Below are positions 17,035-21,674 of a DNA stretch of 64,000 nucleotides, piece by piece. Every line of letters begins with the position of its first letter. Position 1 is the stretch's first letter. Position numbers and translations under genes: made by a program. The notes under the pieces are model-generated. The model was not told where the DNA came from, did no database searches, and saw nothing but the letters and a program-made list of their open reading frames with translations. Where the stretch lies: positions 5,563-69,562 of the IMG/VR virus record IMGVR_UViG_3300037471_000808. One strand, given 5' to 3'. Source of the DNA: a virus (Duplodnaviria; Caudoviricetes).

Positions 17035-17508
17035 TTAGTTGTCTACCTGAACTTGCAGGGTGCCGGCCGGGAAGGTCGGTGCCGGGTCGCCGTTGTTGAT
17101 GTTCTTGGCGTTGGTCAGCGTCGTGTAGTACTGGCCGTTGCCGCCAGTGGCCGCGTCGTAGATTTCGTAGCCGGTCACCCGGCCCCAGTCGCCGGTCGGG
17201 GTCGGGAACGTCACCACGTTGTTGTTGCTGGTGGTGCCCGACGAGCCAGTCGAGGCGGTGGTGGTGCCGGCACCTTGCGTGCCGGCCCAGTTCGCCATTG
17301 ACGAGGTGATCTGGACGCGCGCGTAGCTGCCGCCCGTTACCTCGACCTTGGCCGACTGACCATCGTTATCGACGGTCGTCATCAGGGCCACCCACAACGC
17401 GGTCGGGCCGGAGCCCGCGCCAGCGCTCGCACCGTTGACGCCGAACGCTTGGCCGCGGAAATACCAGTCAATGTACTTGTTCTCGAGAAAGTCGGTCATT
17501 GCGGCCAT
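17035..17508 (-). CDS. minor virion / tail-fibre-associated protein (157 aa)
   Basis: MTDFLEN...LWVAL...EVTGGSYARVQI...VTFPTPTGDWG.VT...IYDAATGGN family pattern. Confidence 0.75.
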   Translation of the reverse strand: MAAMTDFLENKYIDWYFRGQAFGVNGASAGAGSGPTALWVALMTTVDNDGQSAKVEVTGGSYARVQITSSMANWAGTQGAGTTTASTGSSGTTSNNNVVTFPTPTGDWGRVTGYEIYDAATGGNGQYYTTLTNAKNINNGDPAPTFPAGTLQVQVDN

Positions 17509-17549
17509 GCTTGGCTCCAGTTGGAAGTTTTGTCAGGATGCAAGGATTC

Positions 17550-17565
17550 TGGCATGCTTCTTGCT
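17550..17565 (+). promoter_or_regulatory. sigma54 -24/-12 motif
   Basis: TGGCATGCTTCTTGCT, exact GG-N10-GC spacing. Confidence 0.6.
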
Positions 17566-17584
17566 GCAAGTAAAGCTTCCGGGC

Positions 17585-17600
17585 TGGCACAATCATTGCT
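17585..17600 (+). promoter_or_regulatory. sigma54 -24/-12 motif
   Basis: CTGGCACAATCATTGCT, near consensus. Confidence 0.65.
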
Positions 17601-17633
17601 TACCATAAAGGAGTTACAGCCTAGAAAATTTCT

Positions 17634-17662
17634 TTGACAGAACTGCAGAGTTTGCCTACCCT
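17634..17662 (+). promoter_or_regulatory. sigma70 promoter for the replication operon
   Basis: TTGACA-N17-TACCCT, 38 nt upstream of rdgC. Confidence 0.65.
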
Positions 17663-17700
17663 AGTAGTCCCATTCCTACACCACCCAAGAGACCATAATA

Positions 17701-18549
17701 ATGTTCAAAAATGCAACGGTGGTCGGCTTCAAGCCGTCCAAGAGTTTCCTGCCCATCATCCCCAACGAGCACAGGTTCACCCCGCCTTCCAGCGTCGAGC
17801 TGCTGCGCAGCGGCTGGTCGCCGGTGCGCGACGACGTCTATTGCTACGCCAACAACGGCCAGTTCCTGTTTAACTTCACGACCGAGAAGAAGATCCTGCC
17901 GGCCGCCGCGGTCAAGCTGGTGGCCGACGCCAAGGCGGCCGAGCTGGCCGAGCAGCAGGGCTTCCCGCTCGGCAAGGAGGCGATGAAGGCGCTCAAGGAG
18001 CAGGTGACCGACGAGCTGCTGCCGCGTGCGCTGACCACCCGCAGCACGACGCGGGTCTGGCTCGACCCGAAGGCCGGACGCATCGTGATCGACTCGGCCT
18101 CGAGCACGGTGGTCGACACGGTCCAGGTGGCACTGGTGCGCGCCTTCGGCGACCTCGGGCTGCAGGACGTGGCCTGGCCGCGCGCCAAGGTGGTCACCGA
18201 GTTCATGTTCACCGAGCCGGAAGGCTTCACGGTGGATGACCAGGTCGTGCTGCAGTACCCGGGCGAGCGCGGCAAGCTGGTCAAGTTCGACCGCGCCAAC
18301 CTGGGCGAGCAGGACGTGCTGCAGCACATCCAGAAGGGCGGTGCCCAGGTCTCCGCGCTGGCGATGACCTTCGACGCGAAGCTCTCGTTCGTCATGACCG
18401 ACAACGCCCAGCTGCGCCGCATCAGGGCGCTCGACGTGCTCAAGGAGACCGCTGACGCGGCCAAGGACGTCGACCGCTTCGACAGCGACTTCGTGCTGAT
18501 GACCGGCGAGCTGGGCCGGCTGTTCGATGCGCTGGCCGCCGAAGCATGA
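17701..18549 (+). CDS. rdgC: recombination-associated protein RdgC
   Basis: MFKNA...GWSPV...EKKILP...LKEQVTDELLPRA...DSDFVLMTGEL. Confidence 0.9.
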   Translation: MFKNATVVGFKPSKSFLPIIPNEHRFTPPSSVELLRSGWSPVRDDVYCYANNGQFLFNFTTEKKILPAAAVKLVADAKAAELAEQQGFPLGKEAMKALKEQVTDELLPRALTTRSTTRVWLDPKAGRIVIDSASSTVVDTVQVALVRAFGDLGLQDVAWPRAKVVTEFMFTEPEGFTVDDQVVLQYPGERGKLVKFDRANLGEQDVLQHIQKGGAQVSALAMTFDAKLSFVMTDNAQLRRIRALDVLKETADAAKDVDRFDSDFVLMTGELGRLFDALAAEA

Positions 18550-19592
18550 CCGCTTACTACAACGAATACGACAAACACGCCGCGGCCTGGCTGCGCGCGC
18601 TGATCGCCGAAGGCCTGATCGCGCCGGGCGTGGTCGATGAAAGGAGCATCGAGGATGTCACACCCGGAGACCTTGCCGGATTCGCCCAATGTCATTTCTT
18701 CGCCGGCATCGGCGGCTGGTCCCTCGCTCTCCGACTTGCAGGTGTGCCAGACAGCGCTCGAGTCTGGACTGGCAGCTGTCCTTGCCAGCCTTTCTCCGAG
18801 GCAGGCAAAGGAGCGGGGTTTGCTGACGAGCGGCACCTATGGCCCCATTTCCACCACCTCATCCGCATCAAGCGCCCTCCAAAAGTCTTTGGAGAGCAAT
18901 CTGCGAGCCGTAACACGGACCCTTGGATCGACCTTGTACACGCTGACCTGGAAGGGGTGGGTTACGCCTTCGGGTGTGTCGCGTTCCCGTCTGCGGGGAT
19001 CGGTGCGCCGCACCTGCGAGACCGCACTTACTGGGTGGCCGACTCCGACCTGCCCGGCACCGCACGATACGGACGCGACGGCGGGCCGGGCGCGGCCTCG
19101 GCCGGGCTACGGCGTGGATTTGCCGATCGCGGCATCCTTGACCGGATGGGCGACGCCGACCGCGCGGGACTATCGCTTCGCGAACGCGAAGCCCTGGTCG
19201 GAGCGGGGTGGCGGGAAGAAGGGCGAGCAGCTGAACAACCAGGTCGTGCATCTGGCGGGCTGGCCGACGCCGCGCTCGGCGGACGCGCAGAAGGGCGCGC
19301 ACCTGGAAGCGGACACCTCGCTCAAGGGTACGGACCTGCCGACGACCGCCAGCTGGACGGCGACGGACGGCCCGGCCCGGTTAACGGCTTCTGGGCAGAT
19401 GCTGACTGGCTGTTCTGCCGGGACGAGAAGTGGCGGGCAGTTGAGCCCGGCGCATCCCCGCTGGCTGATGGGGTTCCCGGCCGTGTGGGAGCGCTGCGCG
19501 GCTATGGCAACGCTGTCAATGTCTACGCCGCGAAAGCGTTCATCGAAGCCTTCTACCAAATCGAAAGGAGCCTGAATGGTGACCGATCCTGA
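18546..19592 (+). CDS. C5 cytosine DNA methyltransferase, alpha-type subunit (lacks motif IX)
   Basis: Motif [43 protein letters not shown]. Confidence 0.9.
18655..19575 (+). CDS. methyltransferase beta-type subunit in an overlapping frame (motif IX, WPTP repeats)
   Basis: SD AAGGAG-N8-ATG; three W(P/A)TP repeats; [14 protein letters not shown]; its stop abuts the next ATG. Confidence 0.75.
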
Positions 19593-19986
19593 CCTGGCCA
19601 AGGTGCGCGCCATGTGCACCCGGCTTGGCCAGCTGTGGATGCCGGACCCGGCCAGCTGGGCTTGGCGCCGGCCGGACGGCATGGTGCAGGGGCTGGCGCA
19701 CATCTACGCCGACAACCCGGGCCTGGCCAACCTGCTGTGGCTGGCGCTGGACATGCCGGCACCGCCGCGCCAGTACAACGTGACCGACAACCTGCTGGCT
19801 GTTCTGGTGCTGGCCCAGGCCAGCCGTTCGAAGCTGAACGGCGTGCCGCTGCTGGACGTGGCTGCCCTGCGCACCCTGGCCGAGTTCAGCCGGCTGCTGC
19901 CGGAGGCACGCATCGCCGGTAACGAGCTGGAGGGTGCGTATCCGGTGCTGCGCCTGCTGGCGCTGCGGAGGCTGCGCGATGCGTGA
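19576..19986 (+). CDS. hypothetical protein
   Basis: SD AAGGAG; TGA-ATG coupling. Confidence 0.7.
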   Translation: MVTDPDLAKVRAMCTRLGQLWMPDPASWAWRRPDGMVQGLAHIYADNPGLANLLWLALDMPAPPRQYNVTDNLLAVLVLAQASRSKLNGVPLLDVAALRTLAEFSRLLPEARIAGNELEGAYPVLRLLALRRLRDA

Positions 19987-20233
19987 AATCACGATCCACA
20001 AGCCAGCGGCTATCGGAAAGTCGACCATGCAGCCTTTCACCGTGTCAGGCTCGTTGACGATGACGTTCGCGGACCCCAGGCTGTTTGAGCACTACGTAAG
20101 CGCTCGGCAGGCAGGCAAGCGTACTTTGCAGCGTGCCTGGTTGCAGTACCTGTCGACTGCACCGAAAGCCCTGCCCCGCCCGCCGCTGCTGACGCGTGCT
20201 GTCCGTTTCGCCCTGGAGCACTGGCATGCGTAG
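19979..20233 (+). CDS. hypothetical protein
   Basis: ATG 19979; overlaps both neighbours by 8 nt. Confidence 0.55.
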   Translation: MREITIHKPAAIGKSTMQPFTVSGSLTMTFADPRLFEHYVSARQAGKRTLQRAWLQYLSTAPKALPRPPLLTRAVRFALEHWHA

Positions 20234-21674
20234 CCTCGAGGAAGTGCTGGCCGCCCACCCGCTGCCGCACCCGCTGGGTGGCACGATGACGCCCAAGCCG
20301 ATGCAGGTCGAGGACATCCAGCGGGCGGTCGAGTGGCGCCGCGCGCTGCTCGACCTGCCGGTCGGCTACGGCAAGACGCTGATCCTGACCTGCATCTCGC
20401 TGATGCTCGAGCCGCAGCTGACGATCGTGCTGGTGCCGCCGATCCTGATCCCGCAATGGGTCAAGTGGTTGAACAGCATTCCCGGTGCCGGCCTGGCTGT
20501 CGCCTACGCTGGCGGTCCGGGCAAGCGCAAGCAGCTGCCGCTGGGCGAGGCCGACTGGCTGGTGATGTCGTACCAGGTGTTCAACAACGACATCGCATTC
20601 CTGCGTAAGCTGTGCGCGAAGGCCGAGGTGCTGCTGGCGGTCGACGAGGCGCAGAACCTGAAGGGCCGCGGCGTGCTGTTCAAGAACGTGCGCGACTTCG
20701 CGATGGGGCGCGACCTGATGCTGGCCACCGGCACCGCGGCGAGCAAGGTGGGCGACCATTACGCCTACGTCAAGCTGAACACGCCGGACGTGTACGGCAC
20801 CTACTACCAGTTCGAGAACATCCACGTCAAAGAGCGCCATCCCCTCTTCAAATCAAAAATCCTTGAGTGGCACAACCTCGACCTGCTGCAGCAGAACTTC
20901 AACCTGCGCCGGATCCACCGCACCAAGGAGGAGGTGCACGCCCACCTGCCGAAGGCGAACGTGATCCCGATCTACTACGACCTGGCACCCGAGCACATGG
21001 CGCTATACCGGCGCCTGATGGAGGAGCAGCTGCTGCTGCTGGACGACGGCGGCAAGATCGACGCCACCACCGCCACCCGGCTGTACCACGCCGCCCAGCA
21101 GATCGTGATCGACTACGGCTACTTCGCTGGCGATGTGAAGAAGCGGTCGACGGTGTTCGACCTGATCGACGACATCGCCGACGAGATCGGCCTGGGCGAG
21201 GACGTCGACGACGTGCTGGCGACGCCGCGCAGCAAGCTGATCCTGTGGACGACGCACCGCAGCGTGTCGCGCCTGGTGCACGCCCACATGGAGGCCCGAC
21301 TTGCCCGGACTGGCCGGCGCGCGGTGGCGGCGTTCTCCGAGGTCGACTCGAACAAGTCGATCAAGGCGTTCATGGAGGACCCGCTGACGGTCAACCTGAC
21401 CGCCCAGCCGGGCTCGGCCGGCGCCGGCCTGAACCCGCAGTACCTGTGCTGGGAGTGCGCCTACATCCAGCTGCCGACCACGACGATTCCGTTCGTGCAG
21501 TCGTCCGGCCGGATCGACCGCGAAGGGCAGCGCTTCAACCCCAACATCCGGCTGTTCATCGCGCGCGGCACGATCCAGGAGCAGCTGCTGCGCAATCTGA
21601 TCAGCAATGACGAGCTGGTCAGGCAGGCCTCCGGCTCCAAGCAAGGCATCAAAGATTTGATTTTCCCGCAGTAA
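20226..21674 (+). CDS. SF2/SNF2-like DNA helicase
   Basis: LPVGYGKT, VDEAQ, ATGT, GAGLNPQ, QSSGRIDREG; ATG 20226. Confidence 0.9.
   Translation: MRSLEEVLAAHPLPHPLGGTMTPKPMQVEDIQRAVEWRRALLDLPVGYGKTLILTCISLMLEPQLTIVLVPPILIPQWVKWLNSIPGAGLAVAYAGGPGKRKQLPLGEADWLVMSYQVFNNDIAFLRKLCAKAEVLLAVDEAQNLKGRGVLFKNVRDFAMGRDLMLATGTAASKVGDHYAYVKLNTPDVYGTYYQFENIHVKERHPLFKSKILEWHNLDLLQQNFNLRRIHRTKEEVHAHLPKANVIPIYYDLAPEHMALYRRLMEEQLLLLDDGGKIDATTATRLYHAAQQIVIDYGYFAGDVKKRSTVFDLIDDIADEIGLGEDVDDVLATPRSKLILWTTHRSVSRLVHAHMEARLARTGRRAVAAFSEVDSNKSIKAFMEDPLTVNLTAQPGSAGAGLNPQYLCWECAYIQLPTTTIPFVQSSGRIDREGQRFNPNIRLFIARGTIQEQLLRNLISNDELVRQASGSKQGIKDLIFPQ

Follow-up and report, generated by a model that had tools for sequence, protein, structure and literature searches.

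We analysed a 64,000-nucleotide stretch (hereafter the window) of the viral record IMGVR_UViG_3300037471_000808 from IMG/VR (69.6 kb, 66% GC, estimated completeness 88%), which carries a C5 cytosine methyltransferase gene written in two fully overlapping reading frames of one strand. The longer open reading frame (ORF), alpha, encodes 348 amino acids, and the second, beta, lies in the +1 frame and covers 88% of it (306/348 codons). Dual coding of alpha and beta is close to certain, and both frames were shown to be under protein-level purifying selection. The two products, made from one mRNA, are probably the subunits of a single orphan phage C5 methyltransferase. The double-frame arrangement had been proposed in an earlier note made from the letters alone, which gave alpha motifs I, IV, VI, VIII and X and not IX, placed a 306-amino-acid ORF (18655-19575) wholly inside it, and described for this ORF a Shine-Dalgarno (SD) sequence of its own (AAGGAG-N8-ATG) within alpha codons and a TGA adjoining the ATG of the next gene. 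These claims were all borne out. Conservation of both frames, free of stops, extends to hundreds of phage genes, some of them from phages with a GC content of 46-55%.

Motifs were read directly from the alpha sequence. Motif I (FAGIGGW) lies at 18699-18719, motif IV, with the P-C-Q of the catalytic cysteine, at 18774-18797, motif VI (FGEQ) at 18888-18899, motif VIII (LRDR) at 19008-19034 and motif X (GYGNAV) at 19500-19517. Pfam PF00145 matched alpha residues 73-165 with 47.9 bits (cut-off 22); the match was confined to profile positions 64-160 of 324 and ended at motif VIII. Alpha matched phrog_363 over its full length (E 7e-81) and was aligned to residues 69-170 of M.HhaI, i.e. motifs IV-VIII, where GFPCQAFS, MENV and KRER of M.HhaI line up with alpha motifs IV, VI and VIII. 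Among 52 relatives, C80, E117, R158 and R160 were invariant, as were the motif I and X residues G54, G56, G321 and N322.

An AlphaFold2 model of alpha, built on the alignment of the 52 relatives, was confident for residues 1-172 and for a helix at residues 326-345 (predicted local distance difference test, pLDDT, 85-96 for the helix), while residues 173-288 had a pLDDT of only 31-51 and were predicted to be disordered. Foldseek comparison of the ordered part with the PDB returned M.HhaI and M.HaeIII as the best matches, and DNMT2 was also found. Residues 166-280 vary in length and could not be aligned among relatives. Because its middle is unalignable and of low pLDDT, alpha was taken as a large domain plus a spacer, without a target-recognition domain (TRD) or motif IX. 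No motif-IX-like sequence was present in alpha between motifs VIII and X, such a sequence being found in the +1 frame, and alpha does not hold a TRD and motif IX within the same polypeptide. By sequence and model, alpha is predicted to consist of the large domain and the motif X helix, with a spacer between them at the place taken by the small domain in single-chain enzymes.

The length of the beta ORF is weak evidence because the window, at 66% GC, is full of long ORFs, with 141 of at least 150 amino acids. One of these, an antisense ORF of 330 amino acids (17844-18836, - strand), overlies the upstream exonuclease gene together with the first part of the methyltransferase gene; at a GC of 66% it has most probably arisen by chance, and it illustrates that ORF length by itself is no evidence in this window. 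Openness was therefore compared across relatives ascertained in two ways. The alpha-ascertained set consisted of 80 loci found via N-terminal alpha patterns, plus the window (81 genes, GC 0.53-0.68). The +1 frame was open in 81/81 of these genes, over 192-386 codons (mean 307), against a mean of 63 open codons in the +2 frame of the same genes, used as a composition control; homologues thus did not carry stops in the beta frame. The beta-ascertained set consisted of 80 loci found in viral contigs only via a 58-amino-acid beta module, of which 72 were complete. Here the alpha frame was open across beta in 68/72, with a median of 55 open codons in the third frame. Both frames were also open, over 265-474 codons, in four phages at 51-55% GC.

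When the codons of alpha were shuffled synonymously, the +1 frame of the window gene stayed open for 318 codons in 2/300 trials, and in most of the 52 non-redundant genes the observed +1 length was reached in 0-3/300; this null is conservative, since it keeps a codon set already shaped to avoid +1 stops. In the reverse test, with beta-synonymous shuffles of the middle region, alpha stayed open in a median of 9.6% of trials, compared with 52/52 of the actual genes. Beta could be a chance open frame in GC-rich DNA, conserved only as a by-product of alpha or of wrong-frame gene calls: the window is crowded with long overlapping ORFs, alpha-synonymous shuffles still yield +1 open stretches averaging ~150 codons, and the beta families of PHROG and of metagenomes could in principle stem from miscalled frames. 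This explanation was rejected as contradicted by the comparative data, and we regard it as hardly credible, since stops close the +2 frame in these genes, the beta frame is open at 46-55% GC, loci found via beta alone carry alpha, the stretches in which alpha is unconserved show a conserved beta whose substitutions fall mostly at its third codon positions, and the internal start signals are conserved.

The dual-frame conservation analysis proposed in the earlier note was performed as nucleotide diversity per codon position over the 52 non-redundant genes, with an alpha-synonymous resampling null, and revealed selection in both frames. Across alpha residues 1-75, diversity at positions 1, 2 and 3 was 0.17-0.19, 0.15-0.17 and 0.53, the ordinary single-frame pattern, and the first ~39 residues of beta are therefore not conserved as protein; excess identity of the +1 frame before alpha residue 76 was no greater than over residues 1-30, which lie upstream of the beta start. 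Third-position diversity then drops to 0.31-0.35 over alpha residues 76-165, where both frames are constrained and +1-frame column identity was 0.56-0.68, against 0.28-0.37 in the null. Throughout the middle (beta residues 130-240), beta position 3 is the most variable (0.64) and alpha position 3 the least; beta is the selected frame here, and the alpha linker is only kept free of stops. The GC-rich codon position of window 19041-19385 (0.89) is beta position 3, and GC at third codon positions (GC3) in the neighbouring genes is 0.93-0.94.

Both frames are constrained again over alpha residues 281-318, with diversity of 0.12-0.25 at all three codon positions and a +1-frame identity of 0.76-0.82, or of 0.58-0.82 over alpha 271-315 (null 0.27-0.43). 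At 19386-19499, alpha reads W.D.DW..CRD.KWR.VEPG..PLA.G.P.RVG.LR and overlaps the C-terminal block of beta, TASGQML...GGQL.PAH.RWLMG.P..W. Beyond alpha residue 319 third-position diversity is back to 0.51 and alpha alone is constrained. The order along the gene is alpha-only, dual, beta-only, dual and alpha-only, and the resampling null agrees with it.

Two further observations concern these segments. The GC3 of alpha was only 0.68-0.69 over residues 1-165 (18546-19040), below the values of the neighbouring genes, and this low GC3 extends into the first 75 codons, where conservation is confined to alpha. A possible cause is the avoidance of stops in the +1 frame, another that the gene is of foreign origin. 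Alpha of Klebsiella virus KpV2811 (L004:796-1791) has a 27-amino-acid insertion between 'VE' and 'FPL', and the beta WLMGFP thus overlaps a relic, 'MVDGVPGGMG', and not the functional PL..G.P.RV of alpha, which looks like a local duplication easing the double-coding conflict.

The SD and ATG of beta are written in the alpha codons E-R-S-I-E-D-V, namely in R33 (AGG), S34 (AGC) and D37-V38 (GAT G), and the ATG at alpha nucleotide +109 (window 18655) is the commonest beta start among relatives. Asp37 written as GAT and followed by a codon beginning with G creates this ATG; GAT was used in 45/52 genes, whereas it makes up 36% of Asp codons elsewhere in them (p 7e-14, phylogeny ignored). Arg33-Ser34 written as AGG or CGG followed by AGY creates the SD, and Arg33 was AGG in 21/52 genes, against 7% elsewhere in the same genes (p 1.5e-11, likewise). 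GGAG was present in 34/52 genes and never where the ATG was absent (Fisher p 2.4e-4). Such upkeep of the start signals through biased codon choice is what selection for independent internal initiation of beta would predict. No promoter-like site was found within 17400-20300 by a promoter scan, and alpha and beta would therefore lie on one transcript.

Beta was compared with protein families, phage genomes and structures. It matched phrog_1008 (E 4e-34) and phrog_31772 (E 2e-26), and its homologues number more than 5300 predicted proteins, of which none has a Pfam domain and very few have a name. With tblastn, beta was found in 213 phage records, at the same loci and on the same strand as the alpha matches and 30-50% identical across ~90% of its length; the hosts of beta-bearing phages include Escherichia, Klebsiella, Salmonella, Burkholderia, Rhodobacter and Xanthomonas. 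Pfam searches of 52 beta proteins with E up to 10 gave nothing consistent, a beta profile against PDB sequences gave chance matches only (E ~0.6), and the ESM Atlas returned only unnamed viral clusters. The AlphaFold2 model of beta alone had a mean pLDDT of 55.8 and was confident only at residues 70-120, where it shows a helix at 70-90 followed by a hairpin at 95-117; Foldseek of this model against the PDB gave nothing below E 0.19, which is uninformative and not negative.

Three parts can be told apart in beta beyond its unconserved start. The N-domain (residues 40-129) is conserved and consists of the helix, the hairpin and then the first WPTP. The C-terminal block, whose consensus was given above and also as ...QLNPAHSRWLMG.P.EW, has invariant columns at Q262, L263, P265, W270, L271, P275 and W278 among the 52 relatives. 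It includes a motif-IX-like stretch at 19441-19479, within a motif-IX-like part at 19441-19488, directly ahead of alpha motif X. Motif IX of C5 methyltransferases follows the pattern R..T.RE.ARLQGFPD and is the core of the small domain in single-chain enzymes. The block resembles this motif and was assigned to it by eye, as a candidate motif IX, from the resemblance and the architecture. As for the motif IX that the earlier note had ascribed to beta, a near-invariant segment of that likeness is indeed present, and no profile search linked it to motif IX. In actinophage relatives the equivalent of the block, EWMMGFPPGW, stands in frame with motif X.

The third part, between the N-domain and the C-terminal block, is made up of cassettes of 30-40 residues that each begin with W-x-T/S-P. 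The three W(P/A)TP repeats reported earlier were found as WPTP (residue 128), WATP (residue 165) and WPTP (residue 203), and an additional WVTP at residue 102 had not been counted. The 52 loci encode proteins with 2-5 cassettes each, and 120 database proteins hold 0-7. Altogether 594 cassettes from 171 proteins fell into 60 types and 76 singletons, in 162 architectures. The combination in the window (A-Ad-E-R) was unique among the 171 proteins, and at least two of its three variable module types together occurred in none of the other sampled proteins of this set. Cassette m3 (19147-19260) is 90-95% identical to cassettes of proteins that are only ~50% identical overall, and which hold it at other ordinal positions. 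In m3 pairs, amino-acid identity was 0.92, identity at beta positions 1 and 2 was 0.84-0.95 and at position 3 0.50-0.68; as the DNA differences fall mostly at beta third positions, the likeness points to long-term protein-level selection and not recent transfer.

Shuffling of this kind supports a role as exchangeable target-recognition units, for which it is the expected behaviour, and m2-m4 may be regarded, from the shuffling and the architecture, as putative target-recognition cassettes. The suggestion that the repeats are target-recognition modules is thus favoured by the shuffled cassettes; the accompanying idea that they evolve in two frames at once did not hold, because only beta is selected there, alpha over the repeats being unconserved and predicted to be disordered. 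The dual stretches lie on either side, at alpha 76-165/beta 40-129 and alpha 281-318/beta 244-282. Separately, an m3-like cassette was seen in atypical loci among the viral contigs found by the beta module (L096, L098, L102, L103, L107-L109, L138 and L139), in which the -1 frame lacks P-C-Q or the lengths are odd, e.g. an alpha frame of 546-656 codons or a beta of only 189; genes of a different build may also contain such a cassette.

The two-subunit reading, which we favour with good confidence, would work as follows. Alpha, translated from the ATG at 18546, would form the catalytic large domain that binds S-adenosylmethionine (motifs I-VIII), continue through a linker of ~115 residues whose constraint is only to be stop-free, and return to the large domain with the motif X helix. 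Beta would be initiated independently at AAGGAG-N8-ATG (18655) in the +1 frame; after ~39 unconstrained residues, its conserved N-domain of helix and beta-hairpin would dock on alpha, its three variable WxTP cassettes would read the DNA target or targets, and its motif-IX-like block would supply what forms the small-domain core in single-chain enzymes. Together, alpha and beta would rebuild the cleft between the large and small domains of an M.HhaI-type enzyme, and the assembled enzyme would protect the phage genome from host restriction. We infer in this scheme that beta is translated, that it binds alpha, that the cassettes act in specificity and that the complex is enzymatically active.

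Several points weigh against this reading. The case for beta translation and for alpha-beta binding is built on sequence comparison and models. The searches of Pfam, PDB sequences and Foldseek all lacked a beta match, so that the TRD and motif IX labels depend on a short motif and on architecture, and beta folds poorly by itself in prediction, as its mean pLDDT indicates. Ranking of the alpha-ascertained set by full-length alpha score biases it towards intact alpha frames, and, because relatives share ancestry, the p-values for codon choice are inflated. Finally, in M.EcoHK31I, the known enzyme of this design that is compared below, the TRD was published as part of alpha and not of beta (PMC2836561).

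Some of these points would suit a beta that is a selected protein other than a methyltransferase subunit: it might bind DNA, act as a regulator or counter restriction, while alpha would work by itself or together with a host factor. No homology of beta to known domains could be detected, its N-domain has no counterpart in single-chain C5 methyltransferases, and its frame continues in some phages into a downstream gene of other function. We nevertheless consider this unlikely: between its motifs VIII and X alpha is neither conserved nor ordered and so has no small domain with which to read DNA, the motif-IX-like end of beta is placed on the DNA right before alpha motif X, and the pairing of alpha with beta is maintained from Proteobacteria phages to Firmicute phages. 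The precedent of M.EcoHK31I speaks in the same direction (PMC2836561).

A single chain could also be made by programmed frameshifting, running through alpha to motif VIII, shifting by +1 into the TRD and motif IX of beta and back again for motif X, with the overlaps incidental. The pieces do lie in the canonical order I-VIII, TRD, IX, X, and actinophage relatives carry motifs IX and X in the same frame. The ribosome would, however, have to shift efficiently twice, once in each direction, for which we know of no precedent, and the scheme leaves unexplained why beta 40-129 is conserved on the nucleotides of alpha motifs IV-VIII, why alpha stays open through 115 unconserved codons and why the SD and ATG of beta are kept up by codon bias. 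It was rejected on the dual conservation, the open alpha spacer and the conserved beta SD and ATG, and is in our view very improbable.

A more specific form of the two-subunit reading is that beta is a free-standing specificity subunit in which each WxTP cassette has a different DNA target, making the whole a two-subunit multispecific methyltransferase. We put this forward tentatively, as a possibility with rather less than an even chance. If it were true, diversification and recombination of the cassettes would take place over a mere spacer in the other frame, ~130 codons at both ends would be truly double-coded, the published domain assignment of M.EcoHK31I, with its TRD in alpha, might need a second look, and thousands of phage 'DNA methyltransferase' annotations would cover half an enzyme.

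The coordinates of the locus are listed in Table 1. The gene is located in a replication and recombination module, with a recombination-associated exonuclease upstream (17701-18549), the TGA of which overlaps the alpha start ATG (ATGA), and with a 136-amino-acid gene of no assigned family, a helicase, a primase and a DNA polymerase downstream. The beta stop TGA (19573-19575) directly adjoins the ATG of the 136-amino-acid gene (19576), which suggests translational coupling of that gene to beta. The SD of this downstream gene sits in the alpha tail, in alpha codons Glu-Arg-Ser (GAA AGG AGC), the same codon device as is used for the beta SD; its ATG adjoins the stop of beta and not that of alpha.

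Table 1. Features of the alpha/beta methyltransferase locus, in window coordinates
Feature	Positions	Strand	Remarks
Alpha ORF, 348 aa	18546-19592	+	Predicted C5 cytosine methyltransferase catalytic large domain; motifs I, IV, VI, VIII, X
Beta ORF, 306 aa, +1 frame, nested within alpha	18655-19575	+	312 aa if begun at the upstream ATG (18637)
Putative internal ribosome-binding site of beta	18641-18657	+	AAGGAG 18641-18646, 8-nt spacer, ATG 18655-18657
Alpha-only constraint, alpha residues 1-75	18546-18770	+	Includes motif I; from codon-position diversity
First doubly constrained segment, alpha 76-165 / beta 40-129	18771-19040	+	Alpha motifs IV, VI, VIII
Variable beta modules m2, m3, m4	19036-19380	+	m2 19036-19146, m3 19147-19260, m4 19261-19380; each begins W(P/A)TP
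Second doubly constrained segment, alpha 281-318 / beta 244-282	19386-19499	+
Alpha-only constraint, motif X and C-terminal helix	19500-19592	+	Motif X GYGNAV
Downstream gene, 136 aa	19565-19986	+	Own SD AAGGAG 19565-19570, ATG 19576; no PHROG match

The arrangement was also followed into other phage groups. Paenibacillus phage Lily (46% GC; L086:1267-2031) has an alpha of 254 amino acids and a +1 ORF of 165 codons, annotated as 'g62 internal gene', and Lacticaseibacillus phage R23.9 (48% GC; L088:1327-2178) an alpha of 283 amino acids and a +1 ORF of 203 codons. Their +1 frames matched the beta hidden Markov model (HMM) with E 1.6e-5 and 1.3e-15, respectively, for a nominal database of one million sequences, and contain LTWK, a PTP module, and MNPNYCELIMGFP or LNPAWVEWLMGYP. 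Judged from these sequences, what Firmicute phages carry is a shorter version of the same two-frame gene.

Variants were noted beside these. Gordonia phage Trax (L085:1300-2163) and Mycobacterium phage Fushigi (L087:1291-2340) hold motifs IX and X both in frame 0, and their +1 frame has a beta-like stretch ending in LFPTPRSAD or LLPTPLARD, with 107-193 open codons; the HMM match is weak (E 0.087 for Fushigi) and the GC is high, and a third variant of the split is no more than a possibility for the actinophage version. The beta frame of Edwardsiella phage eiAU (L002:1013-2437) is stop-free into an in-frame downstream N6-adenine methyltransferase (474 codons from stop to stop), and that of KpV2811 (L004:872-2233) into an in-frame downstream endonuclease VII (453 codons from stop to stop). 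In these two phages beta might be made as a fusion product, or the downstream gene might merely start within the open frame.

Annotation of the second frame is uneven, and as a rule a single gene is listed. The IMG gene calls for the present record contain alpha and not beta, as the earlier note had expected of automated annotation. Two features under the match were present in 6/40 sampled phage records, and the record of Escherichia coli phage K1ind3 annotates both ORFs, as 'C-specific methylase' and 'Mte8-like protein'. A plasmid search returned only phage-like 'DNA cytosine methyltransferase' loci, where PGAP annotates one gene. In PHROG, phrog_363 (alpha) and phrog_1008 and phrog_31772 (beta) are all labelled 'DNA methyltransferase'; the alpha and beta families are kept as unrelated and are not recorded as two frames of one gene. 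In the literature searched, no paper was found that describes the nested two-frame arrangement as a family-wide feature.

With ~300 codons nested, the gene ranks with the longest dual-coding arrangements on one strand of phage DNA and with the most widely conserved ones; ~130 of these codons are selected in both frames, among them those of catalytic motifs IV-VIII in an enzyme that has been studied in depth. Standard gene calling captures one of the two products. The arrangement also bears on how phage methylation motifs and anti-restriction capacity are predicted from sequence. The family offers a natural system for studying the exchange of specificity modules, the assembly of split methyltransferases and conflicting constraints in overlapping genes.

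Known systems share single traits of this design. The Bacillus phages SPR, phi3T and rho11s encode orphan single-chain C5 methyltransferases with tandem exchangeable target-recognising modules, each with its own target. The likeness lies in tandem, shuffled modules in an orphan phage enzyme, with 2-7 cassettes in varying order here. Unlike those enzymes, which are one polypeptide in one frame, the present cassettes sit on a separate subunit in an overlapping frame, and their role in specificity is proposed from the shuffling. M.AquI (CYCGRG) is likewise a naturally split C5 methyltransferase whose two subunits rebuild one enzyme, the cut falling in the variable region and leaving halves with motifs I-VIII and IX-X (PMC3404938). 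It is not described there as nested reading frames, and, in contrast to the gene analysed here, its motifs IX and X stay together (PMC3404938).

The closest known case, compared through its published description, is M.EcoHK31I of E. coli HK31 (YGGCCR; Lee, Kam and Shaw 1995), the only characterised enzyme of two-frame design. As described in two later papers, it is a two-polypeptide C5 methyltransferase whose beta is encoded wholly inside the alpha gene in another frame and holds motif IX; activity requires both polypeptides, and the N-terminal part of beta is needed to associate with alpha (PMC2836561, PMC3404938). No protein named EcoHK31I was among the results of the beta homologue search, nor of a search with the K1ind3 beta. 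The precedent, put forward in the earlier note together with the remark that beta is longer here, is upheld: in the window as in its relatives, beta (18655-19575) lies in an alternative frame fully inside alpha, and it has 88% of the length of alpha. The two systems differ in that M.EcoHK31I has its TRD in alpha, whereas the inter-motif region of alpha is here unconserved and predicted to be disordered, the conserved N-domain, variable cassettes and motif-IX-like segment all being located in beta. M.EcoHK31I is part of a restriction-modification system, while the gene described here is an orphan in a phage replication module. A biochemical curiosity of 1995 here becomes a major architecture of phage methyltransferases, with more than 5000 beta-like proteins that have no Pfam domain.

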